Part shown: in pieces, positions 1 to 20,000 of the stretch | Numbering within the stretch: the stretch's first letter is position 1 | How the letters are laid out: each line of letters starts with the position of its first letter | Virus record (IMG/VR): IMGVR_UViG_3300033066_001573 | Source: an uncultured virus (IMG/VR IMGVR_UViG_3300033066_001573) | Lineage: Duplodnaviria; Heunggongvirae; Uroviricota; Caudoviricetes | DNA length: 20,000 bases | Strand: one strand, 5' to 3' | The notes under the pieces: generated by a model | Seen by the model: the letters and a program-made list of their open reading frames with translations, nothing else | Databases searched by the model: none | Told to the model about the DNA's origin: nothing | Position numbers and translations under genes: made by a program

Positions 1-1286
1 AAATCATCATGAGAAATGATATAGTTTATGCCATCAATCTTTTTGCTACCTAAAATAGTATCAATTAATTTATGCATTAAGAGTTCTTTATTACTTTGAG
101 TTCCAACTCCTCTTAAGCTTCCATTTGTATAATCATTAACGCTATAATGAACACCATGAATATTAGAGTCTTGACGAACTTCAATTGAGTACTTACCACC
201 TTTTGTATCTGCCTTAAAAACTAAAGTTCCATCAGTATCTTTTGAATGGATTTGTCCACCATCTTTATACCAATCTTTGTCTTCTTCATCCCAATGAAGT
301 TTTCTTCCTTCTTTTAATTTATTGGTAATAAATTGAGATTCTTCCTGAGTTAATTCAGAGCCATCAACATTATAAATGTGAAGTGAATAATATTTTTCGA
401 TACCTTTTTCAAAATAATCACGGTCATTATCAGGAGATACACTTGACCACCAACATCCTGCCATTACAGAACTAATACCATTTTCATTTTTAGTTGAAGA
501 TGGCTCATGAATACCATATCTATTTACAGCTTCTTGAAGAATGTCTTGTAATTCATCAATAGTTTTTTCAACTTCAAATCCTTGTGAATCGAAGTCTCCC
601 TCTTCTGCGCTCTCAGGAGTTATTGTTTGATAAGTAACAGAGTATTGATATTTTTTATCACCTTCAAGAGTTCCACCTAAATCAAAACGAACTTTTTTTC
701 TTGTCAATTTTAAATCAATTAACTGACCTGCAATAAATCCACCTAAAGCACCGAATAAGAATCCACCAAGAGATTTTTTAACTACCTTTTTTTTTGAAGC
801 AGTCTTAGTTTTTTTTAATTCTTCTTTGAATTTAGCAATCATTTTTTCGATTGTCTTAACTCGTATTTTAAGCTCAGTCTTCTTTAAAGGCTGCTTAAGA
901 ATCATTTTATTAACTACACTTAATCTAGTTTCAAGGTCTTTAATCTTTGTTTCTAATTCAGATGTATCAACAGGTTTTTCTTCAGCTAAAACAATAGGCT
1001 CAGACTTAACTACAGGCTCAACTTTAGCAACAGGTGCTATTGAAACAACCTTAGCATCTTCTTTTATTCCAAAGGCAGCAGGATATAAATCAGCGAATGT
1101 TTCAATCCATTTTTTGAAGGTAGATTGTTCGAATTGTAAATCAAGTGTATCATCAGATACTCCTGATAAATCACCTTTCATCTTATCTCTAACTTCTTTT
1201 GGTAATTTTGAATAATCCAATTGTTTAAATACAATTGAAGGTTTCATTGATTGAAAATTCTTTATGATGGTTTTCTTATCTGACAT
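1..1286 (-). CDS. Modular GG-linker protein, 3' end runs off the window (at least 428 aa; not in the ORF track)
   Basis: My manual translation from ATG at 1286 (MSDKKTIIKNFQSMKP...) stays open to position 1. It contains a coiled-coil-like/basic N-terminal part, a Gly-rich hydrophobic stretch SLGGFLFGALGGFIAGQL (~720-770), and linkers FDLGG-TL (672-686) and YKDGG-QI (255-269). It starts 20 nt after the helicase stop. Confidence 0.85.
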   Translation of the reverse strand, partial: MSDKKTIIKNFQSMKPSIVFKQLDYSKLPKEVRDKMKGDLSGVSDDTLDLQFEQSTFKKWIETFADLYPAAFGIKEDAKVVSIAPVAKVEPVVKSEPIVLAEEKPVDTSELETKIKDLETRLSVVNKMILKQPLKKTELKIRVKTIEKMIAKFKEELKKTKTASKKKVVKKSLGGFLFGALGGFIAGQLIDLKLTRKKVRFDLGGTLEGDKKYQYSVTYQTITPESAEEGDFDSQGFEVEKTIDELQDILQEAVNRYGIHEPSSTKNENGISSVMAGCWWSSVSPDNDRDYFEKGIEKYYSLHIYNVDGSELTQEESQFITNKLKEGRKLHWDEEDKDWYKDGGQIHSKDTDGTLVFKADTKGGKYSIEVRQDSNIHGVHYSVNDYTNGSLRGVGTQSNKELLMHKLIDTILGSKKIDGINYIISHDD

Positions 1287-1306
1287 GGCAGTAAATTTAC
1301 AATAAA

Positions 1307-4300
1307 TTAATTAAAATATTTGTTAGTTGGATACACTTCTAAAACAGGTTTTTCGATTGATGGAATAGAGCCTTCATAAGCTAAAACAAAAACAATGTCA
1401 CCATCTTTATATTTAACGAATAAACCACCAATACTATCTGAATAAGGTTCATTCGTTAGCTCATCAACTTCACTGAATTTTGGGTCAAAGTGAGTAAGTA
1501 TTTCTTTTACCTCAGTGCTATCAGAAATAAATTGAAGTGAATCATCTTCTTGAGCATCACCAATAGTTTTAATTCCAAATCCAAACTCTCCGCCAAATTC
1601 CATTTTACTCATTTCTTTTTCCTTGTATTTTTTAGCAAAGTTAAGAGTATCAACAAGTATTCTCATAGCTTTATTATTCTCTTTTTCTTTTCTAAGTTCA
1701 TACAATTCTTTTTCCATTTCCTGCATTTTCTTTAGGTCAGCAGCGGCAGCTAATTCAAATGGTTTATTTTGTTCTTTTTCGTATTCCTCAAGATTAGCAT
1801 TATACTTTCTAATCATTTCCTCAACAGCATCTTCTTCTCTTGCTCTATCTTGAACATCATATCGGTGAGCAATAGTTTTGAATTCTTCAAAATACATATT
1901 CATTGGGAATCCTAATGAGTAAAGTATTTCAATTATCTTTTCTGCATTTTCTTTTCCAACAATATCAGCCTCATAATAATCTCCCCACTTAGTCCAACGA
2001 GAATCTAAGTATTGATTAAGTTCATTGTTTTTATCAATATGATAGCTCTTCTTTTTTGTAGCTTCTCTTCTTAGTAAAAGCTTGTTAGCTCTAGGAGTAA
2101 TTTTTATAATATCATCATCACCAAAAACTAAAACTTTACTTGTTCCAAGTGCATTACCTACAATATCTTTAGCTGCCTCTACAGGTATTTTAACGTATAA
2201 AGCATAAGGATTAAATCCTTCTTCAAGTAAAATACCTTTCTTTACTTTTTTATCGATTGTAGAGTAGCTAATCAATTTGTTTTGACCACTGCTTAACTCA
2301 GGAATACCATAAGCTTTAAGAATGTTTCCTGTTACAATGTAACGCTTAACACGCTCTGATATTGAATCCTTAATTTTATCATCCCAATCATTGAATAAGT
2401 TTTTACCTAAAACTTCTCTCTGTCTGTTATCATAAACATCATTAGTAGAATCCATTATTTTCTTTATGTCTTGCATACTAGCGAAGCTTAATTCAACTTG
2501 ACGTAAAGAAGAAGGGAAGGCTATTTTTAAAGAGAATCCGTATGAACTCAACCATTTACCTGAATCCATTTTAACTCCAATAACAATTCCGTCAAAGTTT
2601 TGCTTTTGAACTTTATAAGAAATAATTGTTTTAGGTTTAAAGAAAGAAACTACTTCTTTAAACTCTTTAGCTCTTTTGTAAACACTTTCTAATTGAGATA
2701 TTTTCTCATCCCACAATTCAATTATATGAGCTGTTTCATCTCTTAAAGCTTCTGCTCTTTTCGATTCATTTTTAATTTTAGTAAATCTCTTATCCTTACT
2801 TAATCCATCTACCTCTCTTTGTTTAGCTTTAATATACTGAGGATAAAAATGATTGTATTCTTCTTTTGCTCTATTGTCAATAGCATCATGAAGCATATCA
2901 ACGTATTCCTCAATAGATACATCAACTATATTTTGTTTAATATCCTTAGTAGATAAAATACCTGCAAAAAGATTTCTTAGATAATTTTTATTAAAAGGTT
3001 TTCTAATATTGTTTATCTCACAAAGTTCAAGGAATGTAGCTCCACCAAATAATGATTTTTTCTTAGGATTACCAACTGATACAGCATCTTTTTCAATAGT
3101 TTTAGCTTGTAAATCTAAACTATCAACTTCTAAGTTCCATCTACCTTCTTGAATTAATTTAGATTGATATGCCTTGTACATATCAGTAACTTCATTGTAG
3201 AATTTCTCTTGGTCTTCAGTACTAAGTATAGCAACTCTTCCTGTAGCCCTGTGAGCCAATTCTTGAATAGAGCCACTAGGAATATTTTCTGTTTCTCCAT
3301 TTTCATTAATAATAGTTTCATAAGAAACAGGGTTTCCTATCATATTATTAACTTCAGGATTATTAGCTAAATATTTCGCTACAACTTCATCACCATATTC
3401 ATTCAAGAAATCAACAACATCAAGTATTTCATTTGATTGTTTTTGATTTGAAGAAGTATTAGCATCTAATGAACGAAGCTTTTTTCTAAGCATCATCATT
3501 AAACGTTTTTGAGAAGGGATAGCTGAAATAATATAATCGTAAATAGGGTTGAATATCATACCTGTACGGAATATTCTACCACGCTTTTGAACTTCTTTAT
3601 TTACATCACGCTCAGCTTCAAGTATAATCATACAACGTTGCTTAACCTCTTCTGTATTTTCTAATGAAGTAGGCACAACAGGTATTCCGTTTTCGTAATT
3701 AACTTGATTAACTTTTGTTGTTTTTATAGAGTGTGCAGAAGAACCTGTAGCACCTGCTTGATTGATAATCAAACAATCGATTACGTTATTATTGAAGTTA
3801 TTAAAAACATCAGTAGCATTTGGAATATTTCTATTCTTAACATAACCACTTTCTTCTGTTTTATCAAATTCAACAATACGAGTTCTTCCTGTTACTTCTT
3901 CAACAGTAAATCCTGCTTCAGCAATTCTTTTTCTAATTAAATCAATAGGACTAATAGTTATTCCTGTAAGTAAACTATCGATACTCTCAACTATTGTCTC
4001 GTAATTTAATTGTGCTTTACCACCAAGTTCTTCAATATCTAAACGATTTTTTTCAGGTACACCTTCTTTAGATATAGTTGTATAAGATAAAGCGTTAGCA
4101 AGTCTTCTTTTTAATATTACAGAAAAATCAACATCAATTTTAGAGCCTGTACTTTCTTCGATAGCATAATCTAATGCACTTTCCATAGTAGAAGCGAGAG
4201 CAATGATTGGTTTTTTACCTTGCTTCATTCTATACACAGCCCATGTAGCAACTGCCTCTGCATTTATAGAGAAGAATAATTGATTAACAATATTGAATAT

Positions 4301-5902
4301 GCCTTGATAAGCGTTGTTATTATATAAATCTGCTTGACAAACTGCACGAGCAGCATCTTTTTCATCACGACTACCGAAAAGTATCTGATTAGCTAATTCT
4401 ACTCCACATTCTGATTCAATCCAACCTTGTCTTTTTGCATGTACAATAGGATTAACATCTTTTTGAACGAACTTAATAATATCACGAATAACAGATAAGA
4501 ATCTATCCGCAATAGCATAATGAGCATTCTTTAAGTTAAAATCAGGTTCTTTTACTTCAGCAGATTCATCGAGTGTCATATAATTAATCTCGATTCCTTC
4601 GTAGCTTCTTTCTCTACGAATCATCTGTCCTTCTGCAACTAACTGAGAAGAAATTATTTCTTGCATCGCAACTCCACCTTTTGTTAAAGCAGATATTAAT
4701 TCTTCTGAGGTTAAATCAGCATCAGCGATATTAGATTTAATTGAATAAATAGGCATATTATCAGGTCTTTTAGCATAAGTAGCAGACGCAAATAAATTAC
4801 CCTTAGTACCTTCAACAATATTTTGTAAAATTGAACCTCTACGTGAAGCTCCTGAGCTATTATGTGACTCATCCATACAAACGATATTATCCTTTGCAAC
4901 TTCCATCATAAACTCAACTTTTTTAGAAGCTCTCATTGAACTAAATTGAGAATAAGTAGCAAGAACACAATCGTATTCTTCAACTAATGTTTTTGAAGAA
5001 AGAACTTCATTTAATTTTACAGAAGGTAATCCTTTGTATAGGATATTACCATCTTCATCTTTAATTTCTGTTTTACTACTTGCACCATTTATAATGAATG
5101 GAACAAATCTCTTTTCACCTTGAATGTCTTCTTCATAAGATTTATTTGTAGTGTACTTATAAACCTTCATTACTTGGTCAGGGAAGTTCTCAGCACGATA
5201 AGCATCAATAGCTTGTTCTGTAAGTTCTTTATTTCCTTTTTTGAAAAGTAAATCACCATCAAATCCTTCTAAATCAAAGTCATCATTGTCAATATCTTCC
5301 TTCATAGCTGAAATAACTAATTCACGAGATACTTCAACTGTTTTTTCAACCTCACCACTTCTGAATTTTATTGGGATACCTGCATCTAAACCGATAGCAA
5401 TCATATCACGATAAATATCAGAATACAAGTTTGGTCTTTCTGTAATGAATATTGGCTTTTTACCCTGAACCTTTGCGTATCTCATTACTCCTGCAAGGCA
5501 TCGACCTTTGCCTGCCCCTGCCATATCGCCTAAAATCAAGGCTTTACCATCTTGAATTTGTACAATTGCAGCAGCAATAGCATCAATTTGTTCAGCACTA
5601 AAAGCTCGGCACAATTCAATCATATCATTGTATCCAAGTTGCTCCATAACAAACAAATCGATACCACGAACCTTTCTGTCAATATCCTTTAAGTTTTTGT
5701 TCATATCAAACAACATGCGAATAGGAGCTGACATATTTAGTGTATCACACACTTCAGAAGTAGGAATGTATGCATCAATAGTAGCATCAGCATTTTGAAT
5801 ATTCTTTTCCTCTACAGGATTAGAATCATCAATTTGTTTTTGTTCGGTACTAATAACGTTTGTAATTTCGTCTTTATTTGAAAGCGGATTATCTTGCATC
5901 AT
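1307..5902 (-). CDS. Strawberry-notch (SNO)-family SF2 helicase/ATPase, 1531 aa, with a short C-terminal module after an MEFGG linker
   Basis: Walker A-like GDMAGAGKGR (5501-5530), Walker B DESH (4862-4873), motif III FASATYA, EVTGR, INQAGATGSSAH, motif VI QKRGRIFRTG (~3561-3590). This order is typical of SNO/AAA_34 + Helicase_C_4 proteins. No methyltransferase motifs seen. Confidence 0.85.
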   Translation of the reverse strand: MMQDNPLSNKDEITNVISTEQKQIDDSNPVEEKNIQNADATIDAYIPTSEVCDTLNMSAPIRMLFDMNKNLKDIDRKVRGIDLFVMEQLGYNDMIELCRAFSAEQIDAIAAAIVQIQDGKALILGDMAGAGKGRCLAGVMRYAKVQGKKPIFITERPNLYSDIYRDMIAIGLDAGIPIKFRSGEVEKTVEVSRELVISAMKEDIDNDDFDLEGFDGDLLFKKGNKELTEQAIDAYRAENFPDQVMKVYKYTTNKSYEEDIQGEKRFVPFIINGASSKTEIKDEDGNILYKGLPSVKLNEVLSSKTLVEEYDCVLATYSQFSSMRASKKVEFMMEVAKDNIVCMDESHNSSGASRRGSILQNIVEGTKGNLFASATYAKRPDNMPIYSIKSNIADADLTSEELISALTKGGVAMQEIISSQLVAEGQMIRRERSYEGIEINYMTLDESAEVKEPDFNLKNAHYAIADRFLSVIRDIIKFVQKDVNPIVHAKRQGWIESECGVELANQILFGSRDEKDAARAVCQADLYNNNAYQGIFNIVNQLFFSINAEAVATWAVYRMKQGKKPIIALASTMESALDYAIEESTGSKIDVDFSVILKRRLANALSYTTISKEGVPEKNRLDIEELGGKAQLNYETIVESIDSLLTGITISPIDLIRKRIAEAGFTVEEVTGRTRIVEFDKTEESGYVKNRNIPNATDVFNNFNNNVIDCLIINQAGATGSSAHSIKTTKVNQVNYENGIPVVPTSLENTEEVKQRCMIILEAERDVNKEVQKRGRIFRTGMIFNPIYDYIISAIPSQKRLMMMLRKKLRSLDANTSSNQKQSNEILDVVDFLNEYGDEVVAKYLANNPEVNNMIGNPVSYETIINENGETENIPSGSIQELAHRATGRVAILSTEDQEKFYNEVTDMYKAYQSKLIQEGRWNLEVDSLDLQAKTIEKDAVSVGNPKKKSLFGGATFLELCEINNIRKPFNKNYLRNLFAGILSTKDIKQNIVDVSIEEYVDMLHDAIDNRAKEEYNHFYPQYIKAKQREVDGLSKDKRFTKIKNESKRAEALRDETAHIIELWDEKISQLESVYKRAKEFKEVVSFFKPKTIISYKVQKQNFDGIVIGVKMDSGKWLSSYGFSLKIAFPSSLRQVELSFASMQDIKKIMDSTNDVYDNRQREVLGKNLFNDWDDKIKDSISERVKRYIVTGNILKAYGIPELSSGQNKLISYSTIDKKVKKGILLEEGFNPYALYVKIPVEAAKDIVGNALGTSKVLVFGDDDIIKITPRANKLLLRREATKKKSYHIDKNNELNQYLDSRWTKWGDYYEADIVGKENAEKIIEILYSLGFPMNMYFEEFKTIAHRYDVQDRAREEDAVEEMIRKYNANLEEYEKEQNKPFELAAAADLKKMQEMEKELYELRKEKENNKAMRILVDTLNFAKKYKEKEMSKMEFGGEFGFGIKTIGDAQEDDSLQFISDSTEVKEILTHFDPKFSEVDELTNEPYSDSIGGLFVKYKDGDIVFVLAYEGSIPSIEKPVLEVYPTNKYFN

Positions 5903-5934
5903 GTGAATATTTTTTAAGCTTAATTAAGCATTAG

Positions 5935-5942
5935 CAAAAATA
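5935..5942 (-). promoter_or_regulatory. Possible Bacteroidota-type sigma70 -7 element (TAnnTTTG) upstream of the helicase
   Basis: The minus strand reads TATTTTTG about 32 nt upstream of the ATG at 5902, in the only sizeable intergenic gap (5903-5970). No convincing -33 TTG box was seen at the expected spacing. Confidence 0.4.
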
Positions 5943-5970
5943 AGAATAATTTTTATCTTTTTGATACTCA

Positions 5971-6894
5971 TTATTCTATATGCTCAACAATATCGTTAAC
6001 ACATTCTTTACCTTTTTCTGTTAACGAAAAAGCGTTACCTACAATTTCGTAATCCCTGAATAAATATCCTTTACTAACTAAATCAGAAACATATTCTAAA
6101 TCTTTAGAAGAACTAATAAAGAAGCCATCTAGGTCATCATTAAAGTTCCTGTATAGTATTTCACCTTGATAACCACCAATATCATTGTAGTCTCTTGAAA
6201 TAACCTCAGATATATCTTGTGTAACATCATAAGTTGTTGCAGATAAATTACCGCCTTGTTCTTTTAGTGGAATCTGAGATACACCAATGTCAGAAATAAC
6301 CTCAAAAAGACTATCATCTTCTTTTAGAACGATTAAATAAATACCTCTAGGCTCATAAATAACAATGCTATCGAAACCTGCCTTAAGAAGCTTTGTGTTT
6401 AATTCATTCTTATCCTTTACTTCTCCTTTTCCAATTAGCTTATTTAAAAGCTCTGTGTATTCGAAAGAAGGGGTTAATCTGTCATGGTTTATAAAAACGT
6501 ATGGTTGCTTTATTCTTGGCTTAATAGTAACAAAGCGAGCATTCTCAAACTTATCCCTGTAGAAATCAAAATCATCAAGGAAGTAAATTCCAAACCCATA
6601 CTTGTTAGCTGAATCATAAGAAATTTGAAATGGCTCACTGATTGAAGGATAATACCTGTAGAACTCCATTGAGTTTATTTTATCAACAGTTGGATAGTTA
6701 AGTGCCTTAGCCTCTCCACCATCTTTAAATATTTCCTTATCATCAGCATAACCAATAATTCTTTCTTTTGAAACTAATGATTCACCGATACCATTATGCA
6801 TAACGTAGAAATCCCCACGTACATCTAAAATATCTCCTTTAGTTATTTTTCCATTTTCTGAGAATAGAACTGAGTCTGTTAATTCGTATTTCAT
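5971..6894 (-). CDS. 307-aa three-module protein: small N-terminal domain / divergent ART-like domain / winged-helix-like C-terminus
   Basis: Linkers FKDGG (6715-6729) and KEQGG (6250-6264) flank a segment with YGFGIYF...IKQPYV...LLKAGFDSIVI, which resembles the ART modules of the 2903-aa protein but lacks YHGT. The C-terminus LVSKGYL...FSLTEKG is wHTH-like. Confidence 0.7.
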   Translation of the reverse strand: MKYELTDSVLFSENGKITKGDILDVRGDFYVMHNGIGESLVSKERIIGYADDKEIFKDGGEAKALNYPTVDKINSMEFYRYYPSISEPFQISYDSANKYGFGIYFLDDFDFYRDKFENARFVTIKPRIKQPYVFINHDRLTPSFEYTELLNKLIGKGEVKDKNELNTKLLKAGFDSIVIYEPRGIYLIVLKEDDSLFEVISDIGVSQIPLKEQGGNLSATTYDVTQDISEVISRDYNDIGGYQGEILYRNFNDDLDGFFISSSKDLEYVSDLVSKGYLFRDYEIVGNAFSLTEKGKECVNDIVEHIE

Positions 6895-6905
6895 TTCTTT
6901 TTTTT

Positions 6906-11012: not shown

Positions 11013-11018
11013 TTACAT

Positions 11019-14000
11019 TTATTGTTTTTCTATTTCAGAAGGATTACTATCTCTTTGAGATTTATTTAACTTAATTCTATTTGCAGAATCAATACTTTCA
11101 ATTTCTAATAATTGATTTTCATATTGTAAACGTGCATTTTCACGTATTTCTTTAAGACGAATATTGAAATCAGCTTCAGCTTGTATTCTTTCAATTGATT
11201 TTTCAGGTAAGGATGTTATTTTACCCCATACTTCTTTAAGAACTCTTGCATATTTTCTCTGTTCCTTTTCAACAAAATACGATAGTCCTCTTTCTTCACC
11301 AAATCCTTCTGCTTGTTGAATGGCGTGTTGAACTTCTGTAATTGTTCCTCTGAGAACCATGTTGTACATTTCGGTGGAAGTGATTTTATTTGCTCTTTCA
11401 TAATCAATATATATTAAAATTTGTTTATCTAAATCTGTTGTTTTATCGTATGCTAAACTGAATACAAATATATTAAATTCGCCCTTAAAATCATACATTT
11501 TTGGATTATCAGTAAAATAATCCTCTTTTGACTTAAAAACTACCTTAATATCCCTTAATTCAGGATAAGCTTTAAATAATTCTCTATGTTGAATGAAGTG
11601 AATTAATGGTACATTATTTATCTTTTTATCTAAAATATCATTAATATCAATTAATAATTTAGCTTTATGGTCAGAAAACTCAAATCTCCAATTATTGTCT
11701 TTACCAACAAACACTCTACCACTATAATTCAACTTTTTAGAACCAATAATACCTCCAAACATCTTCTTTTCATTATTTGATTTTTTAGGATTATGTCCCC
11801 AAATCAATAAGGAAAGATATTTTCTTGTTTTATTTCCTTTTTCATCAATTAAATCTCCTTTTGCACCTGACATTCTTTTAACAAATCCAATCTGTCTTTT
11901 TGCCCATGCCCACATTTCATTAGTCCAATCTTCTCTTTTTGTTTTCTTCATTTTCATAATCCATCTAGCACTTTCTCTACCACTATGAATTCCTAACTCA
12001 TCCGCTTCACTCTTTTTTAATCCTGCTACTTTTCCTTCTTCGCTATCATAGAATTCTTTTAATTCAGAATAAGACATATTAATCAACTCTTTCCAATCTT
12101 TATAAATATCATCTTTTTCTTCTTTTTCTAAATAGCCTCCTTTTAGCATTTTAATATTTCCCTCATAATTCTCAATAAACTCCCTACTTGGTTTTTCACT
12201 ACAATATTCATTTGAGTTTTTAGACTCAGTCCACTCATAGTAGTATGGAGTTTCTCCATATCTATTATTATCTAATGCTTTTTGATATATATTTGAGCGA
12301 TTTTTATTTTCAGAAAACTTTGTCAAGTCTTGATATATTCTATCGTTCTTTTTAAAACATAAGCCTTCAAAATCAACTTTAATTCTTTCCCATTTTTCAT
12401 TAGCTAATAAAGTACGTTCTTTATCTTTTGCTTCTAAATCTATTCTTATTAAATTGTTTTTTCTTGTTTCTTCAATATCTCTTTTAACAGATTCAACTAA
12501 TTTATTTACATCAGTATTTTGTGAATAGTGATATTCATTCGATATTCTTTCATGATTAGTAACAGGGTGGTCGCTTATTCTAAATTTTCTGTAAACATTA
12601 AATTCATCAATAAAACTAATATATGTAGAAACACCAAAATCAGTTATAGAGGTGTTTGGCTGATTTACAAAAAAACCTTCTTTTAACAAGGCACTTCGTA
12701 ATTCATTTGCCTTTTCTTGTTGATTCTTCTTTTCTATTTCTCCATATAATAATGAACCTAAATATCCTCCATTTTCAAACTGACCATAAGAATCCATTAT
12801 TTCTTGCTCCCAATCAAATAGTTCAATGCTTTCAATTCCATCTTCTCTCCAAACGCAACCACTAGCAACATCCCAACTAAACATCCACCAAAACAAATAA
12901 CGAAGATTATAATTTTTTTGATTACCATCTTCAATTCTCACATAAGTATCGTCTATCCTAGACCAAGAAGCGGGGTCTTTAACCTCAATCCCACTATAAT
13001 CTTCAGCGACATCAACCCATTTTATTAAGAATCTATTCATATAACTACCATGTTCTTGAACGCCATACTTTTTAGTAAAATCAATAGCTTCATCAATAGT
13101 ATTTATTGACAATACTTTATCCGTAATTTTTATTTTATGAACATAATTATATCTATTTGCTAAAAAATCTAATTGATTAGAAACTTCTTCAGCCCATTCA
13201 TTTCCTATGCTATACCAAAGACCTTCAGGCTTATCTGTTTCATTTTGCTCCTGTTTATCTTCTCTAAATTTTATTTCTTTTTCACTAGAAAAAATATACC
13301 TTTCATTTTCATTTAATATACCACTATCATATACTTGTCTAATTACAGTACCTTCACTTCTATCACGATAAGCATCTTCATAATAATCCTTGTCAAAATC
13401 AGAAAACTCACCTCCATTTTTATAATTTTCATTATACTCAGGTAATTCTTTAGCATCTTTAAAATTAGATACTGTAACATTTAATATTTTATTATTACTT
13501 GGAATAGGCAATTCAAATTCGGATTCAGAAGATGAAGAATCAGAAAACAAATGATATAATCTAATAGCATTTTCCCAATCTACATTTTCTTTTGGAACAT
13601 ATCCTGATATTATTTTCAGTTTACTTAATGGTTCTCCTAAATGACGACCAAATTCTTTTGCTGAATCTAAATATATAGACCAACTTTCTCCAATTGAATA
13701 GGGGTCTAAATCAACTTCTTCTGCACTGACACATCTATAAACAGGAATGAAATCATCATCTGATATACTTTCTATAAAATCATAAATCTCTTTAACATAA
13801 AGCATCGCTTGTTCTTTATCTTGAAATTTAGCATCTTCTGAATAATCACTATCTTCCTCAGCTATCCAAACTCCGCCTTGATTTGATTCTTCTGTTTCAA
13901 TAATATCATAAGCTTCATCTAATGTTGGAAATTTATTATCAGCCATTTCTTCCCCAACAATAACTCCTCCACTCTCAAATTTTAATTCATTTAAATCAAA

Positions 14001-17000
14001 AACATTTTTACCTGAATATTCGTTTACTCTTGACTTTAAATCATAAATATATTCAGTCCAATTACGAACTATAGGTTCATCAAGTAATTTAAATTTATTA
14101 TTTCTATCATGTTCTATTATAAACTTACCTCCTTCATGGAATACATATCCTAAAGAAGCTGTAGATTGTCTAATTTTATCAATAGAATTATGATGCTCCT
14201 TCCCCCAACTTCCATTTTCTAAAGGGCTTTGTTCACTTAAATACTTGTATAAATCTAAACACAATTTATGAGCATCTTTAAATTCACCCATATTTCCTAA
14301 AGCTTCGATTCTATCAATATCAGATTTAACTTTATCTGACAAAATCAAACTAATTATTGAATCAACATATTCTTTTGGATAGTCTTTATAATAAATATGC
14401 TCATATATATTTTCATTAATAGTACCTCCATTTTCCATTTTGGAATTTAGAATATTTTCAACTTTACGTTTTTGCCTTGCTACTCTATTTTTTAAATCAT
14501 AAAGACCTCTTGGATTAACACCTCCATTTTCTTCAACTCTCTTTGAAATCCAAGCCCAAGTTAATTGCTCAATTGTGGTTCTTGATATTGGTCTTTTTTT
14601 ATAGCTTTCAGTTCCATACACATAATCATTATCTTGTCTGTATGTAACATCTCCCATAGCATAATTAGAATAAGCTCCTTTTTTATAAGACTCTATTATT
14701 GCTGAAAACTTACTATCTTCTCCAACTTCTTTTATCTCAGGTTTTTCAGCCTTTTCAAATTTCGCATAAAGGTCATCGTATTCTTTTTTCTGCGATTCAA
14801 GTATAGCTAATTGCATTTGTTGTTTAGCTAATGTTTTTGATGCCGTTACTAAGTTTGGAAATGATTTTAATTCCTTCTTATCTAAGTAACCCAAAAGCAC
14901 AGGAACAGAATCAGAACTAACTGTTTTGTATTCTCCACTAGGCATTAAAATAGTATACTGATGAACTATATCTCTTCCTGTTTCAGCACTAATTTCAGCC
15001 TGAGTCCAATCAGAAACTCTTTTACTAACTAATTCACCTTCATAATTAGGCTTCATAGTCCATTCATAAGACCATGTATAAGAAATTAATTTAGCTCCAT
15101 TTTTACCTTCTAATGGTGGGTCAAAAACCACTGTTTCAGTAGGTCTAAATCTACTACTAGCAGAAATAACTTTATCAAAAGAAACTCCTCCTCCATCTTC
15201 AAACCTTATATCAGGATTATTAGAATCAAAAGTAGTGTTAGTTCCATCTGAAAGTTTTATCTGTTCAGGATAAAAAGCAATCCAAGAAACAGTAGATGTA
15301 ACTTCAAATTCATCATCATGATAGTCTTTTCTGTTTTCTATTGTACCTTCATGAAATTTAACTCCATCATAACCATTTCTTTTAAAGCTATCTATAATAT
15401 CATTGTTTGCTAAAAAAGCTATAAGGGGCTGTTCATTTTTAATAATTTGATTTTTCCAAGTATCATGAAATGAATCTATCTCATAAGGCAAATGCTTTAT
15501 AAATTCTTCCATGCTAATGTCTTCATACCCATCCTTTATTGATGTTAAGTCAATCGGATTTTTAATAGATAAGAAAACATTATAAATCATTTCATTTTCA
15601 ACATCAATCCTATATCTTTTCTTAGCTAATATGAAGTTTTTAGAAAAATTATAATCTTCTGCAAAGTAACCTACTGTTGGAAATCTTTTAGAATCAAACT
15701 TGGTAAAGCCTCCTTTTATAGTTCCATGATAGCACTCTTTAGGTTCTCCATTAGAATCTACTACTTTACTTGCATTTTCAGGGTCTTCAATCCAATTTCC
15801 GAACCACGAAATAAAATCGGGACTTCTCACTAATTTATATTGCTCAGGGGTTAAATTACTAGGTTTACCATTAGGCGCAAGTAAATCATATTCAACCTGT
15901 ACTTTAATTTTATTTTTCAAGTCACCACCTTGTTCAAACTTATTTGAATCAATAAATGATTGACCTTGTTCTGTAGGCTCGTGAAAAACAACATCATTTG
16001 AATTAAATACTTTTTTAGCGTATTGAATCATAAATGAGTTAATATGATTTCTTTTAGCAGAAGGTCTTACTGACATAAAGTGAATAACAATTTTATTATT
16101 AGCTTCATCGTAGTATCCTTGAACCATACCTAAAAGATTCTTAGCTCCTTTAAATTTATTTTGCCATTTAGAAGTCCATATTTCATCAATAATGCCTACA
16201 CTATTAAATGAGAATCCTTTCATTCTGTTTGGGAACATAAGGAAGTCATATTCTCCACTATTTATTTTAGGAGCAAATTCTGTTGTATCATAAAACCAAA
16301 TAAGGAATCTATTTTTAGCAAAGAAAATATTACCTTCTTGCTCATGGTAAATACCAATATATTTTTCAACTTCATCTAAAGGCATATCACGAAGAGCATT
16401 ATCTCCTTCGTAAACCTTCTTCTTTTCAATTTTAAGTTCGCCTCCATTGCTCATTTTGGCTTTAACCTTAAGAACACATCTTTCGTACTTATCTAAACCT
16501 TCTTCAGACCAATCACTTCTTTTTTGAGTATCTTCTGTTTTACCAATACTAGTAGTACAAACTGCATAAGGATTTATAGAGCCACCTTTTTTCATGGCTT
16601 CAGGTGAATAATTTAATTCAGATGGAAACGATTTATCTTTATTTATAAATCTTTGAACTACAGCTCTTGCTTCAACTTCAGCAGGGTCATTATAGTATAA
16701 TTCATGTAAATATGAACTCTCATTTACTATTAAATAGTTTAAGTAATTTTCTAAATCGTACTTATCATTAGATACATCTGAACCTATCGAGTTGGAAACA
16801 TCTTGAAGTTGTATCCTCGCTCGTTCAATTTCTTCACTAAATTGTTTCCTTCTTTCACTATCCGTTGAGCTTCTTCTATTTCCTCTTTGGTTCTGAAGTA
16901 TGTGCTGCATTTCGTGTAAAGCGCAGAGTCCGATACTTGATTCGTTTGGATATTTTTTTCGTTCTTCTCCATGTTCTTTAATATATTTGAAATCTATGTA

Positions 17001-19730
17001 TAAATCTATTTTATAAAAATTAAACTTGGTTGGATAATCAAGTCTATAATTAAATTCTGCAATACAATTTTCTTCAGGATTACGTTTAAAATAAGTAAAA
17101 TCATAATCATCCAAGTCATACAAATTTACTAAAATATCTTTAGATTTTGGTAAAATCCTAAAAAATTCTGAATGACTAACTAAATCACCTAATTTTAGTG
17201 TGCTTTTATTTTCATACTTTTCAAGTAATTGTTTTTCAGTTAATAAAAACACATAACTATCGTCATCTATTTCACTTCTCCATTTTCCATCAAGACCAAT
17301 AAAATAACCTGTTTCGTAGAATATTTTCTCATCACTAAAACCTAATTTTTTAAATGACATTGCTGTTTCAAAAAGTTCAGTATTCCCATCTATAACTCCA
17401 CCAAATAACATTTTATCTTGGCTATTAGCTTCGTTCAAATAATACTTTCTAATTTTCTGTTGAGTAACCCTATCTAATTTTTTTGTAAAATCTAATATAG
17501 TTTTATTCTTATCACTTTGATTGAAATCTTGAAGCTTCTTTAAGGAAAGTTTATACTTAGTTTTTAATCTAATATACTCATCTGACTTACGAACTTCATC
17601 AGGAACTAGTCCCATATCATGTCTTTTTCCAATAATTTTATTCCATTCATCTGAGTAAAAAGAAACATCATTATCAAGTGAATATTTTTCTTTTAATAGA
17701 GCATCAATATTTTCAGGAATTGATATTCCATTAATAATAATTCCACCATCTTTCATTTCAATATTTTGTTTTTTAAAATCAGATAATAAACACTTGCCTT
17801 GATTTAATCCTGAATACGATTCTGAATCTAACATCCAAGTGCATTCTCCAAGCTCTCCCCAATGGTCTGCCTGTCTAATTACATATTCTCCATCGTACCA
17901 ATACTTACTTCCTGATTCAGAAATAAAATCAGGTTTTCTACTAGGCACTTCACTTCTGTATATTGAAGAAAAATCTGCGATAGTATTTAAATGGAAATTA
18001 CTAAAAGATATTTCTTCTGAACTATTGTCTTTAAAATAATTATTGTTTTCACCTCCATTATCAAAACTTATATCTCCACCATTTTCAAAATTAGTATCTT
18101 CTATCTCTAGTTGAGAAATAATATCATATATTTTTTGTTGAATCGTAGATGTATTTTTGTTTTTTTCAAATTCTCCTTTTAGCCACAAACAATATTTCTT
18201 ATCTAGTTTCCATATAGATAAAATATCTTTTCCATTATATTTTCCAAATGTAATTGTAGGGTTATTTTGTGAATTTATTTTAGTTGAAGATTTAATTCTA
18301 TAATCATCAGTTGATAAATTAACTCTTGTTGTTGGGTAATGAGAAATTAGCTTATTAACTGCTTTTAGCAAATCAATTGACACGTTTTGTAAATATTTAG
18401 CTACTATGACATTCCGCTTTGAGTTTACATCATATACTTCAGAATGTTTATATAAAGTATAATAATTTAGTTGTACCCCTGTCTTTTCAATTGTTATTTG
18501 TGGGAATTCTTGAGTTATTTTACTATTGTGTTTATCACACAACTCAATAGCCTCTTGTAATTCAACATCCGATACTTCTTCAAATATTGCTTTTAACTTC
18601 TGAAATTTATTTGAATCATTTAATTTTCTAGCCTTATCTAATTGATTTTTAAATCTTGGCTCACATTTAGAAATATTATTTTCTAATTGTAATTTAATAA
18701 AATCGTTTAATTTTATTTTTGTACTCACAATAGAGTATCCAAACTTATTCAAACACCAATCTAATCCGTTTTCTTTATATTCAATAGAGTTTAAAATAAA
18801 ATCTTTTACCTTATTCATTGTATACAAACTTATTTCACTATCTATATTATGGATTACACTTAATACATTTTTCGTTAGATATTTTGAAACGTATTTAGAA
18901 AGAAATGAAATCGGATTTACGCCACCACTTTCAAGGAAATGCTCATTTGCTTTTATAAAAGCAGTTTCATAATTATTATCTTTTGAATATTTTGATAAGG
19001 TTTTAAAATAATTACCAATTATAGAATTATAAAGATTTTCATAAATTTTATTATCTAAAATAAATTGGCAAAAATTAGTGAATTCAGAATAATTATTACT
19101 ATACTGATTCATCCAAATGTTTGCATTCTCATGATTAAAACTCATATTTAAAATATTTCCACCTTTAGCGTATCTTACATCAGGATTACTTCCATCAAAA
19201 TTAGTATTTGTACCATCAGCCAATTTTATTTGAGTTGGTTCAAAAACAACAAACTCTATATCTCCATATCCATCTATGGCTTTTACTCCATCATATTTAC
19301 CAACGATATTTTTTGTAAAATCCCTGCTTACACCTTTATTATCTAACATTTTTTCAGTTGAATAATTTTCATACCCTTTTGGCATTACATCATTATTTAT
19401 TACAAAAGTTTTTCTAATGTTTAGAAATATAGATAGAACCCTACCATTATCTCCTCTTGCATAATCGGATGCAAAACTTTTTGAACTTGAAAAATAAATC
19501 CCTTGCCCATAAGCACCTATTGTTGGCTTGTCCTTCTTAAATTCATTAAAATCAAATGTAGTTCCGTGATAAACAACTAAAGGCTCACCATTTTCATCCA
19601 CAACTTTACTTGAATTTTCAGGCGAATTTTCCCAATCCCCAAACCAAGAAATAAACGCAGGTGTACGCACCAAACGATATTGTTCAGGAGTTAGATTTGT
19701 CGGTTTTCCGTTGGGTGCTAATAATTCCAT
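11019..19730 (-). CDS. 2903-aa giant polyvalent protein with about 15 modules separated by [FMY]xxGG linkers
   Basis: Uninterrupted ORF. It contains two ART-PolyVal-like modules, two LPD23+zincin modules, a GNAT-like module, an R-S-E ART-like module, a DUF3140-like module and several unknown modules. Confidence 0.9.
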   Translation of the reverse strand: MELLAPNGKPTNLTPEQYRLVRTPAFISWFGDWENSPENSSKVVDENGEPLVVYHGTTFDFNEFKKDKPTIGAYGQGIYFSSSKSFASDYARGDNGRVLSIFLNIRKTFVINNDVMPKGYENYSTEKMLDNKGVSRDFTKNIVGKYDGVKAIDGYGDIEFVVFEPTQIKLADGTNTNFDGSNPDVRYAKGGNILNMSFNHENANIWMNQYSNNYSEFTNFCQFILDNKIYENLYNSIIGNYFKTLSKYSKDNNYETAFIKANEHFLESGGVNPISFLSKYVSKYLTKNVLSVIHNIDSEISLYTMNKVKDFILNSIEYKENGLDWCLNKFGYSIVSTKIKLNDFIKLQLENNISKCEPRFKNQLDKARKLNDSNKFQKLKAIFEEVSDVELQEAIELCDKHNSKITQEFPQITIEKTGVQLNYYTLYKHSEVYDVNSKRNVIVAKYLQNVSIDLLKAVNKLISHYPTTRVNLSTDDYRIKSSTKINSQNNPTITFGKYNGKDILSIWKLDKKYCLWLKGEFEKNKNTSTIQQKIYDIISQLEIEDTNFENGGDISFDNGGENNNYFKDNSSEEISFSNFHLNTIADFSSIYRSEVPSRKPDFISESGSKYWYDGEYVIRQADHWGELGECTWMLDSESYSGLNQGKCLLSDFKKQNIEMKDGGIIINGISIPENIDALLKEKYSLDNDVSFYSDEWNKIIGKRHDMGLVPDEVRKSDEYIRLKTKYKLSLKKLQDFNQSDKNKTILDFTKKLDRVTQQKIRKYYLNEANSQDKMLFGGVIDGNTELFETAMSFKKLGFSDEKIFYETGYFIGLDGKWRSEIDDDSYVFLLTEKQLLEKYENKSTLKLGDLVSHSEFFRILPKSKDILVNLYDLDDYDFTYFKRNPEENCIAEFNYRLDYPTKFNFYKIDLYIDFKYIKEHGEERKKYPNESSIGLCALHEMQHILQNQRGNRRSSTDSERRKQFSEEIERARIQLQDVSNSIGSDVSNDKYDLENYLNYLIVNESSYLHELYYNDPAEVEARAVVQRFINKDKSFPSELNYSPEAMKKGGSINPYAVCTTSIGKTEDTQKRSDWSEEGLDKYERCVLKVKAKMSNGGELKIEKKKVYEGDNALRDMPLDEVEKYIGIYHEQEGNIFFAKNRFLIWFYDTTEFAPKINSGEYDFLMFPNRMKGFSFNSVGIIDEIWTSKWQNKFKGAKNLLGMVQGYYDEANNKIVIHFMSVRPSAKRNHINSFMIQYAKKVFNSNDVVFHEPTEQGQSFIDSNKFEQGGDLKNKIKVQVEYDLLAPNGKPSNLTPEQYKLVRSPDFISWFGNWIEDPENASKVVDSNGEPKECYHGTIKGGFTKFDSKRFPTVGYFAEDYNFSKNFILAKKRYRIDVENEMIYNVFLSIKNPIDLTSIKDGYEDISMEEFIKHLPYEIDSFHDTWKNQIIKNEQPLIAFLANNDIIDSFKRNGYDGVKFHEGTIENRKDYHDDEFEVTSTVSWIAFYPEQIKLSDGTNTTFDSNNPDIRFEDGGGVSFDKVISASSRFRPTETVVFDPPLEGKNGAKLISYTWSYEWTMKPNYEGELVSKRVSDWTQAEISAETGRDIVHQYTILMPSGEYKTVSSDSVPVLLGYLDKKELKSFPNLVTASKTLAKQQMQLAILESQKKEYDDLYAKFEKAEKPEIKEVGEDSKFSAIIESYKKGAYSNYAMGDVTYRQDNDYVYGTESYKKRPISRTTIEQLTWAWISKRVEENGGVNPRGLYDLKNRVARQKRKVENILNSKMENGGTINENIYEHIYYKDYPKEYVDSIISLILSDKVKSDIDRIEALGNMGEFKDAHKLCLDLYKYLSEQSPLENGSWGKEHHNSIDKIRQSTASLGYVFHEGGKFIIEHDRNNKFKLLDEPIVRNWTEYIYDLKSRVNEYSGKNVFDLNELKFESGGVIVGEEMADNKFPTLDEAYDIIETEESNQGGVWIAEEDSDYSEDAKFQDKEQAMLYVKEIYDFIESISDDDFIPVYRCVSAEEVDLDPYSIGESWSIYLDSAKEFGRHLGEPLSKLKIISGYVPKENVDWENAIRLYHLFSDSSSSESEFELPIPSNNKILNVTVSNFKDAKELPEYNENYKNGGEFSDFDKDYYEDAYRDRSEGTVIRQVYDSGILNENERYIFSSEKEIKFREDKQEQNETDKPEGLWYSIGNEWAEEVSNQLDFLANRYNYVHKIKITDKVLSINTIDEAIDFTKKYGVQEHGSYMNRFLIKWVDVAEDYSGIEVKDPASWSRIDDTYVRIEDGNQKNYNLRYLFWWMFSWDVASGCVWREDGIESIELFDWEQEIMDSYGQFENGGYLGSLLYGEIEKKNQQEKANELRSALLKEGFFVNQPNTSITDFGVSTYISFIDEFNVYRKFRISDHPVTNHERISNEYHYSQNTDVNKLVESVKRDIEETRKNNLIRIDLEAKDKERTLLANEKWERIKVDFEGLCFKKNDRIYQDLTKFSENKNRSNIYQKALDNNRYGETPYYYEWTESKNSNEYCSEKPSREFIENYEGNIKMLKGGYLEKEEKDDIYKDWKELINMSYSELKEFYDSEEGKVAGLKKSEADELGIHSGRESARWIMKMKKTKREDWTNEMWAWAKRQIGFVKRMSGAKGDLIDEKGNKTRKYLSLLIWGHNPKKSNNEKKMFGGIIGSKKLNYSGRVFVGKDNNWRFEFSDHKAKLLIDINDILDKKINNVPLIHFIQHRELFKAYPELRDIKVVFKSKEDYFTDNPKMYDFKGEFNIFVFSLAYDKTTDLDKQILIYIDYERANKITSTEMYNMVLRGTITEVQHAIQQAEGFGEERGLSYFVEKEQRKYARVLKEVWGKITSLPEKSIERIQAEADFNIRLKEIRENARLQYENQLLEIESIDSANRIKLNKSQRDSNPSEIEKQ
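11022..11750 (-). other. LPD23-like + zincin module (copy B, degenerate: TEVQH instead of HExxH)
   Basis: FVGKDNNWRFEFSD..HRELFKAYPELRDIKV..ITEVQHAIQQAEGF (TEVQH at 11325-11339)..EIES. Confidence 0.7.
11763..12134 (-). other. DUF3140-like module
   Basis: INMSYSELKEF..GIHSGRESARWI..IGFVKRM..YLSLLIWGHNP resembles the DUF3140 pattern VNMTxxEL..SG..RYSLxNWGHDP. Bounded by MLKGG and KMFGG. Confidence 0.65.
13425..13964 (-). other. R-S-E-type ADP-ribosyltransferase-like module
   Basis: VYR (13734-13742), GESWS, SAKEF, ESEFEL (~13510-13527) occur in the order expected for R-S-E ARTs. Bounded by FESGG and YKNGG. Confidence 0.55.
15204..15923 (-). other. ART-PolyVal-like module, copy 2
   Basis: LLAPNGKPSNLTPEQY..CYHGT..GYFAED..VFLSIKNP..GYDGVKF..SWIAFYPEQIK. 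Confidence 0.75.
15939..16439 (-). other. GNAT-like acetyltransferase module
   Basis: IVIHFMSVRPSAKRNHINSFMIQY..FHEPTEQGQSF resembles GNAT motif A (VxPxxRRxG) and the following helix. Bounded by MSNGG and FEQGG. Confidence 0.5.
16596..17396 (-). other. LPD23-like + zincin metallopeptidase module (copy A, intact HExxH)
   Basis: IFYETGYFIGLDGKWRSEIDDD..KLGDLVSHSEFF..HEMQHILQ (HEMQH at 16902-16916)..YYNDPAEVEARAV. Confidence 0.8.
19173..19730 (-). other. ART-PolyVal-like module, copy 1 (H/Y/E-type motifs intact)
   Basis: VVYHGT (YHGT at 19560-19571), YGQGIYFS, ASDYA, YDGV, EFVVFEPTQIK. This is the pattern of ART domains in DarA-like/large polyvalent proteins. Confidence 0.8.
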
Positions 19731-20000
19731 TATTCTATAACTCTTTTATATTCAGGTCTTAAATAAACTTTTTTGTATTTTACTCCACTAAGATAAACAA
19801 TATCATCTTTCCACCAATGTAGCTCTCTACCTAACTTATACTCAACTTTTTCAACAGAATATGAATCAGCTATCTCCACTGCATGTTCTATTTTTTTTGG
19901 TTTTGTAAAATTTAAATCACCACCTTTTTTGAAAGAATACTCTTCTTTTAAAATTATTTTAACTTCTTTAGGTAAAGACTTTTTTAGTTTACTATCAGGA
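19730..20000 (-). CDS. 3' end of an upstream modular gene (truncated by the window; not in the ORF track)
   Basis: My manual translation is ...PDSKLKKSLPKEVKIILKEEYSFKKGGDLNFTK...RPEYKRVIE*. It contains the FKKGG-DL linker (19919-19933), and its TAA overlaps the next ATG by 1 nt (TAATG). Confidence 0.8.
   Translation of the reverse strand, partial: PDSKLKKSLPKEVKIILKEEYSFKKGGDLNFTKPKKIEHAVEIADSYSVEKVEYKLGRELHWWKDDIVYLSGVKYKKVYLRPEYKRVIE

Follow-up and report, generated by a model that had tools for sequence, protein, structure and literature searches.

The 20,000-nucleotide stretch analysed here (the window), from an uncultured virus of the class Caudoviricetes (IMG/VR record IMGVR_UViG_3300033066_001573), is filled by six tightly packed minus-strand open reading frames (ORFs A–F) whose products are chains of modules punctuated by a short glycine-glycine peptide. 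Four independent routes show that this peptide marks the joints between modules and not the folded domains themselves. By sequence comparison it is lineage-specific, apparently having been acquired by modules of unrelated fold within one large set of phage polyvalent proteins, the giant multi-effector proteins defined by Iyer and colleagues in 2017 (PMC5512222). We propose that the peptide is an endoproteolytic processing site at which the modules would be freed, a reading to which we give a probability of roughly 0.45.

A Gly-Gly peptide at module joints

A preliminary description of the window had listed 26 Gly-Gly sites, each by the lowest base of its second glycine codon on the minus strand, and all 26 are there. 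Twenty-four fit a looser pattern, [FMY]xxGG, and 22 the strict one, [FMY]xxGGx[ILVF]; the departures from the latter are KMFGG-II (E 2659), KEQGG-NL (C 214), FDNGG-EN (E 559) and FKDGG-EA (C 59). When each protein was shuffled 1,000 times, using patterns defined post hoc, after the data had been seen, no shuffle reached the observed count for GG alone (41 observed in the six proteins; shuffle mean 22.0, maximum 36), for [FMY]xxGG (24; 2.64, 9) or for the full pattern (22 in about 6,600 residues; 0.72, 4). The motif had also been said to be missing from the helicase core, and this holds: among the five GG pairs of ORF B only that at residue 1437 fits, outside the Pfam stretches at 312–449 and 750–926 and in front of a 93-residue C-terminal module. 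The claim that it brackets every recognisable domain stands for both ART modules, the three LPD23-zincin modules and DUF3140; the GNAT label itself is weak, falling below its cut-off, and in front of DUF5661 in ORF D there is just a variant, SLVGG.

Searching with ORF E brought up 222 proteins (1,596–5,081 residues), and we examined the 120 that were listed, ORF E included. In BLAST comparisons of ORF E with the other 119, 66% of 646 high-scoring segment pairs (HSPs) end and 58% start within 10 residues of a site, a figure that is 12% for random positions, and 498 of the 646 cross no site at all, a count dominated by ART matches. Within the 22 proteins for which Pfam coordinates were available, only 3 of 194 sites fall inside a Pfam stretch where 37 were expected (P = 2.5e-14), all three in its first 10 residues. 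Cutting 108 proteins at the motif yielded 1,267 segments, which single-linkage clustering (with one large family lumped) sorted into 349 families, 217 of which are singletons; lengths within families are tight, for example 48–49, 98–104, 111–111 and 163–169 residues. The fourth route is a set of proteins unrelated to the ART-selected ORF E set: an exhaustive search with ORF A found 237 relatives whose best-matching stretches start at query residues 202–215 and end at 322–349, which is the segment between the ORF A sites at 204 and 343, and the 150 of these that were listed together hold 265 strict motifs where 11.3 would be expected. The expectation that the motif would coincide with domain boundaries and stay out of folds is thus supported by alignment ends, Pfam coordinates, segment lengths and the ORF A relatives alike.

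Structure prediction agrees with this placement. An AlphaFold2 model of ORF E residues 1255–1535, spanning the second ART module and both its joints (27-row alignment), has a mean predicted local distance difference test score (pLDDT) of 71; means over 10-residue blocks of the core are mostly 84–97, with weaker blocks 15–18 at 53–65, and both joints lie in segments below 50 (model residues 1–26 and 256–281). For ORF C (12 rows) the model is poor as a whole, at a mean pLDDT of 56.7, with a confident N-terminal beta domain at 7–49 and C-terminal domain at 224–306; its GG sites sit at the edge of, or within, low-confidence stretches. Such low pLDDT at the joints is compatible with a flexible linker, though no proof of disorder.

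Constraint on the peptide and its distribution

Several observations place the constraint on the peptide. The Gly-Gly codon pairs of the 24 [FMY]xxGG sites vary (GGTGGA 7, GGAGGA 4, GGAGGT 4, GGCGGA 3, GGTGGT 3, GGAGGC 2, GGTGGC 1), which argues that selection acts on the amino acids and not on the DNA. Among 12 ORF C orthologs at 47–97% identity, 11 retain F..GG and 9 retain the second GG, in an all-or-none manner, while the surrounding joint has diverged, varies in length and is rich in insertions and deletions; GG is likewise kept at the ends of ART modules. Over 1,053 unique sites, proline from −4 to +2 stands at 0.09–0.19 times background (3–6 observed against 31.9 expected) and just outside this core at 1.7–2.3 times background. 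From such patterns we infer that a partner specifically recognises the junction peptide as part of the joints.

The motif divides the 120 ORF E relatives into two groups, a division drawn after the counts were seen. About 105 carry 2–20 strict copies against 0.13–0.6 expected (20–50-fold enrichment; P0073 was kept in this GG group despite having none), and 15 more distant relatives carry 0–1 (P0094, P0103–P0105, P0108, P0110–P0119). When every gapped three-residue word was counted blind across the 105, F..GG ranked just below words belonging to the ART domain itself, with 511 occurrences against 51.8 expected, in 102 of 105 proteins. The logo of 2,024 GG sites reads [KR]-[FYM]-[EKA]-[KDEN]-G-G-x-[IVL], at a median spacing of 138 residues. 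Spacings below 20 residues make up about 6% in relatives; one such junction lies in the window itself (18045–18089, E 551–560), duplicated in tandem as FENGG-DIS-FDNGG.

The ART module offers the clearest view of this divide, its tail reading NPDIR[FY]xxGG in the GG group and DIR[FY] without GG in the 15 distant relatives. A quick tree, built from ART cores after the junction residues had been trimmed off, groups 12 of the 17 GG-less modules in a single branch (Shimodaira–Hasegawa-like approximate likelihood ratio support 95), and the GG label needs 5 changes against 15.7 in shuffles. Across viral contigs the motif is concentrated in giant genes: seven GG-type contigs have 3.55 copies per 1,000 residues in ORFs of at least 700 residues and 0.28 in smaller ones, compared with 0.09 and 0.08 in five non-GG contigs. 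The giant gene of Bacteroides phage BS-TP4 (L001, PQ571277, 1511–17686; 5,391 residues), directly upstream of the portal gene and containing a relative of the helicase (30.6% identity), has a single strict motif and is a natural negative control. Five non-GG polyvalent proteins (P0108, P0112, P0094, P0115 and P0116) repeat the tail F[DN]xxNxDIR[FY] two to three times each, and not only after ART; this tail may be an older junction-like element.

Genes and modules of the window

Judged by domain content, the window proteins belong to the polyvalent class of Iyer 2017. That class was described as combining 2–15 or more disparate effector domains, including ART-PolyVal, LPD23, zincin metallopeptidase (MPTase), superfamily 2 (SF2) helicase, methylase and NUDIX domains (PMC5512222, as far as its text was available). 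The window proteins share this giant multi-effector build and domain set: many unrelated domains lie on one chain (two ART-PolyVal, two LPD23 and DUF3140 in ORF E; DUF5661 and LPD23 in ORF D), and the signature ART-PolyVal, LPD and zincin MPTase domains are present (PF18760; PF18838 with E-values of 2.8e-12 and 4e-11; HEMQH and HETQH). Module relatives, reached with a degenerate DNA pattern, sit on IMG/VR viral contigs, and no structural genes lie within the window. No near-identical phage record was found in the collection searched, where matches of window ORFs to proteins of named phages are restricted to the ART module or the helicase. None of ORFs A, B, C and F has a homolog among the 12 contigs compared (seven GG-type, five non-GG), which indicates that the window's phage belongs to a different lineage.

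Genes, modules, junction sites and protease candidates of the window, with the 261-residue HExxH protein of related contigs (strict, [FMY]xxGGx[ILVF])
Feature	Position	Strand	Description
ORF A	3..1286	-	first 428 residues of a protein of about 1,400; 2 strict sites
ORF B	1307..5902	-	1,531 residues; Strawberry-notch-type SF2 helicase (AAA_34, Helicase_C_4); 1 strict site
ORF C	5971..6894	-	307 residues; three modules, 1-58, 61-213, 216-307; 0 strict sites (1 by [FMY]xxGG)
ORF D	6906..11012	-	1,368-residue polyvalent protein; 4 strict sites
ORF D domains	DUF5661 at 302-357; LPD23-zincin at 843-1110		Pfam
ORF E	11019..19730	-	2,903-residue polyvalent protein, about 16 modules; 14 strict sites
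ORF E ART-PolyVal modules	residues 1-190 and about 1270-1513		Pfam PF18760, E-value 8.3e-38, two stretches
ORF E LPD23-zincin modules	residues 779-1050 and 2661-2903		Pfam LPD23
ORF E GNAT-like module, weak	residues 1098-1269		Acetyltransf_13, E-value 1.4e-4, 22.1 bits against a cut-off of 22.8
ORF E DUF3140	residues 2533-2660		Pfam
ORF F	19730..19999	-	last 89 residues of an upstream protein; 1 strict site
YAKGG-NI (E 190)	19152..19172	-	end of ART1
FENGG-DI (E 551)	18069..18089	-	
FDNGG-EN (E 559)	18045..18065	-	tandem copy, loose at +2
MKDGG-II (E 662)	17736..17756	-	
MLFGG-VI (E 777)	17391..17411	-	start of LPD23-zincin 1
MKKGG-SI (E 1049)	16575..16595	-	end of zincin 1
MSNGG-EL (E 1096)	16434..16454	-	
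FEQGG-DL (E 1268)	15918..15938	-	before ART2; pLDDT below 50
FEDGG-GV (E 1513)	15183..15203	-	end of ART2; pLDDT below 50
MENGG-TI (E 1768)	14418..14438	-	
FHEGG-KF (E 1867)	14121..14141	-	
FESGG-VI (E 1921)	13959..13979	-	
YKNGG-EF (E 2106)	13404..13424	-	
FENGG-YL (E 2321)	12759..12779	-	
MLKGG-YL (E 2531)	12129..12149	-	before DUF3140
KMFGG-II (E 2659)	11745..11765	-	variant; between DUF3140 and zincin 2
MNDGG-YF (D 775)	8679..8699	-	
YLYGG-EL (D 841)	8481..8501	-	start of LPD23-zincin
YNDGG-EV (D 1109)	7677..7697	-	end of zincin
MKDGG-IL (D 1273)	7185..7205	-	
FKDGG-EA (C 59)	6709..6729	-	
KEQGG-NL (C 214)	6244..6264	-	variant; orthologs have F, M, L or Y at -3
MEFGG-EF (B 1437)	1583..1603	-	
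FDLGG-TL (A 204)	666..686	-	
YKDGG-QI (A 343)	249..269	-	
FKKGG-DL (F 26)	19913..19933	-	
LPD23 + zincin module E1	16581..17396	-	intact HEMQH; candidate in-cis protease
LPD23 + zincin module D1	7683..8486	-	intact HETQH; candidate in-cis protease
Zincin-like module E2 (E 2661-2903)	11022..11750	-	degenerate TEVQH
261-residue HExxH protein	L029:7737-8519 (G004)		
Orthologs of the 261-residue protein	L034:170-955; L045:6778-7563; L048:19151-19951; L058:7461-8240; L053:6830-7612; L041:2587-3360		

ORF A has orthologs of 1,389 (P0140) and 1,463 (P0141) residues at 80–81% identity. Its residues at about 172–192 form a glycine-zipper hydrophobic stretch (LGGFLFGALGGFIAGQLI), followed by the module at 207–345, a widespread small domain (the 237 relatives mentioned above) with a motif site on each side. 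In many of those relatives the domain is N-terminal and is followed by YA[VI]GG and a similar glycine-zipper segment, an arrangement that, judged from sequence, would suit a membrane-inserting ejection protein. Other domains found by Pfam in the ORF E relatives include topoisomerase IB, NUDIX, GNAT, Zeta, PBECR5, beta clamp and methylases. Whole DNA polymerase III beta (sliding clamp) domains are embedded in the giants P0066, P0070, P0082 and P0089 and in L035:4090–7236, and other relatives contain eukaryotic-type topoisomerase IB, NUDIX, Zeta-toxin kinase and CCA-adding enzyme domains.

Processing site or uncut tag

In the reading we propose, polyvalent chains are probably carried in the phage particle and delivered with the DNA, and the eight-residue peptide [KR]-[FYM]-x-x-G-G-x-[IVL], set in a variable, flexible linker, is probably recognised, while extended, by a factor acting in trans. 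A protease—the in-cis zincins of ORFs D and E, or some other enzyme—would cut at or beside GG, in the capsid or after injection, and the modules would be released as separate enzymes. We favour it because three things fit. One is the 2017 prediction that polyvalent proteins are delivered with the invading DNA and processed into units by their own MPTase, made with no cleavage site named in the available text (PMC5512222). Another is the existence of free N termini that match the joints: in proteins that begin with a module, alignment places the initiating methionine 0, +1 or +2 residues past the GG of internal copies in 370, 309 and 347 of 3,679 HSPs (for example MELLAPNG against GG-xx-LLAPNG), counts that are redundant and ART-dominated. 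The last is the nature of the cargo, as embedded sliding-clamp beta and topoisomerase IB modules seem, from what these families do, to need release in order to work. A more specific version, in which an uncharacterised metalloprotease (the in-cis LPD23-zincins, or a 261-residue HExxH protein in the lineage of the complete GG-type contig G004) would cut the injected giants at every [FYM]xxGG joint to give 10–17 separate anti-host enzymes, is tentative, and we would not call it probable.

There are candidates for such an enzyme. In the window they are the two zincins with intact motifs; in the third module, E2, to which the close relative P0002 gives an end-to-end hidden Markov model (HMM) match, TEVQH replaces HExxH, so that metal binding is probably lost and the module probably inactive. 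Pfam recognised no other protease in the window modules, and no cysteine protease in the window proteins, the window being part of a 73.5-kb contig. Neither G004 nor its giant genes contain a recognised protease by Pfam or PHROGs, and the same scans recognised no head protease, portal or HK97-type capsid gene in that contig. The 261-residue HExxH protein, with invariant residues H188, E189, H192, E202 and D206, is present in 7 of 7 GG-type and 0 of 5 non-GG contigs, a co-occurrence confounded by kinship; given that ORFs A, B, C and F lack homologs in all 12, it also concerns a lineage other than that of the window. It is one of only three G004 non-giant genes detectable by BLAST in at least six of the seven GG-type contigs, the others encoding a 271-residue ATPase and a 233-residue protein with no Atlas lead. 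Atlas look-ups gave the HExxH protein only weak leads (DUF4344 0.84, M48 0.82), and neither a profile search against PDB sequences nor a Pfam scan gave anything significant. It belongs to the core genes of a phage group (about 63–84 kb), and its family has 2,222 members in metagenomes.

A number of findings weigh against processing. The candidate proteases follow the motif poorly: the LPD23-zincin HMM matches 12 of 121 proteins (11 of the 120 relatives including ORF E, plus ORF D), and inspection by eye finds a zincin HExxH in about 24 of the 105 GG-type proteins and in 14 of the 15 without GG, so that in cis the MPTase tracks the motif badly. The preliminary description had suggested a search elsewhere in the genome for a CE-clan (Ulp1/adenain-like) or prohead protease; across five related GG-type contigs, Peptidase_C48 (PF02902) and the S78 head protease (PF04586) matched their positive controls and none of the five, while the zero of five for Peptidase_C5 (PF00770) is uninformative, its control being silent too, and S77, ClpP and S49 were not searched. 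In the window's phage, Pfam analysis of the window proteins links no protease to the motif. The depletion of proline spans the whole core without singling out P1', as would suit any extended-strand binding, and the motif is lost in some ORF C orthologs, so no single joint is essential. Terminal ART-like modules keep the motif and stop 3–5 residues later (RFENGGKIKN, RFEKGGKVN and GGSIKKV, each directly before the stop codon), an arrangement that suits a tag and would be unexpected of a site serving for cleavage only. Finally, in the virion study of crAss001 the cargo proteins appear under full-length predicted masses of 262.5, 154.5 and 276.9 kDa, and 'cleav', 'proteoly' and 'protease' are absent from the available text (PMC10172136).

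These points lend weight to an alternative that we consider a real possibility while leaning against it: that the peptide is an uncut docking, packaging or ejection tag on proteins that stay whole. It might add a strand to a surface of the inner capsid, the portal or a chaperone, loading and ordering the giants, or it might act as a hinge while the chain is passing through the tail. Such a tag explains the enrichment, the boundary position and the proline-free extended core equally well, and explains better than processing does both the terminal modules with their few remaining residues and the conserved tails found after the last GG in some proteins (TPDYL[RK]MFLGK, FKPITTPL, QQFGK and YVENLINKINGNY, at or near the C terminus). 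These tails, carried by P0076, P0081, P0086, P0099 and P0066 and by L015, L035 and L031, differ between phage groups, and look from their sequences like candidate address peptides. The failure of Pfam and PHROGs scans and of the C48 and S78 searches of five contigs to reveal a dedicated protease also suits a tag, as does the description of crAss001 cargo as stored and extruded partly unfolded, with cleavage unmentioned in the accessible text (PMC10172136). Against it, the last modules of window ORFs D and E end without the motif, and sliding-clamp and topoisomerase modules flanked on both sides would presumably be hindered if never released. Moreover, one tag per protein, like the capsid targeting sequence of T4, would suffice for loading, but here there are up to 16 per chain, with every joint bearing a copy.

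That the joint is a passive inheritance, a linker cassette that travels with modules during recombination and supplies flexibility only, is improbable. Heavy shuffling (349 families among 1,267 segments) and post-GG residues that partly belong to the next module's N terminus, as in GG-x-LLAPNG, are what it would predict; however, the codons are not conserved, as they would be in a DNA recombination site, and the peptide is kept while the linker around it diverges and changes length. It has also been acquired across unrelated folds in one lineage while the same ART module elsewhere lacks GG, and if flexibility were all that mattered, Ser, Ala, Asn or Pro should serve as well, whereas GG is all-or-none and proline is kept out. 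Far less probable still, and rejected here, is a nucleotide signal in which GGAGG-like Shine-Dalgarno sequences in the glycine codons drive internal starts: GGAGG occurs in 10 of the 24 [FMY]xxGG sites, but the other 14 use GGTGGA, GGCGGA, GGTGGT or GGTGGC, in-frame ATG, GTG or TTG is rare within a few codons after GG, and the flanking conserved residues are amino-acid classes with varied codons. We also rejected a double-glycine leader/C39 export system, the motif being internal and repeated and not an N-terminal leader; Pfam scans of the window proteins gave no C39 match, and no genome search for C39 was made. What survives of the preliminary proposal, which offered GG-cut polyproteins or a reiterated packaging or ejection tag, is the multi-module architecture with the motif at its joints; cutting and tagging both stay at the odds given above.

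Maturation at Gly-Gly is carried out by CE-clan cysteine proteases—adenain of adenovirus, pS273R of African swine fever virus (ASFV) and the Ulp1/SENP enzymes—which take a hydrophobic residue at P4 and GG at P2–P1. The phage joints resemble theirs in pairing GG with an upstream hydrophobic residue and in recurring along a viral polyprotein, but the analogy drawn in the preliminary description fails where it can be tested: no C48 match was found in the five related contigs and no cysteine protease in the window, and the F/Y/M anchor lies at −3 from the first glycine, which would be P5, one residue further from GG than P4. The phages moreover belong to another realm, and cleavage is only proposed here. 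Multifunctional autoprocessing repeats-in-toxin (MARTX) proteins, in which a chain of effectors is released by an internal cysteine protease domain (CPD), share the giant chain of independent effectors, short unstructured linkers with a simple recognition residue and an in-cis protease acting after delivery; the phage proteins differ in having a candidate zincin in place of a CPD and delivery by phage particle instead of secretion, their cutting again being a proposal. The internal proteins of T4 bear one N-terminal capsid targeting sequence, removed by the prohead protease at a hydrophobic-x-Glu site, so that a short peptide both addresses packaged enzymes and is cut by a head protease; the window peptide is instead internal, GG-based and present at every joint, and S78 was found in none of the five related contigs (S77 was not searched). 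A further parallel is crassvirus cargo: these proteins too are very large, stored in the virion and believed to leave it partly unfolded, and no junction motif is described for them in the available text (Bayfield et al. 2023, PMC10172136). The window's ART-PolyVal modules are 36–42% identical to those in giant genes of crAss-like phages, and beyond that module no common gene was detectable between the window and named crass-like records.

What is new relative to Iyer 2017 is a conserved GG peptide at the junctions and the fact that it is confined to one large subset: 'linker', 'glycine', 'interdomain' and 'boundar' do not occur in the available text of that paper (PMC5512222), and full-text searches, within the literature they cover, found no published account of such a junction. 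Processing of polyvalent proteins into units was predicted in 2017 without a known site, and a sequence-defined joint makes that prediction directly testable. If our reading is true, the joint would be the first defined cleavage code for polyvalent proteins and a bacterial-virus counterpart of GG processing in adenovirus and ASFV and of MARTX autoprocessing; the motif may also offer a means to load foreign cargo into phage particles. Whatever the mechanism, it provides a practical ruler with which giant, mostly unannotated phage proteins can be divided into natural modules, and the 349 module families it delimits are a rich source of candidate anti-defence effectors.

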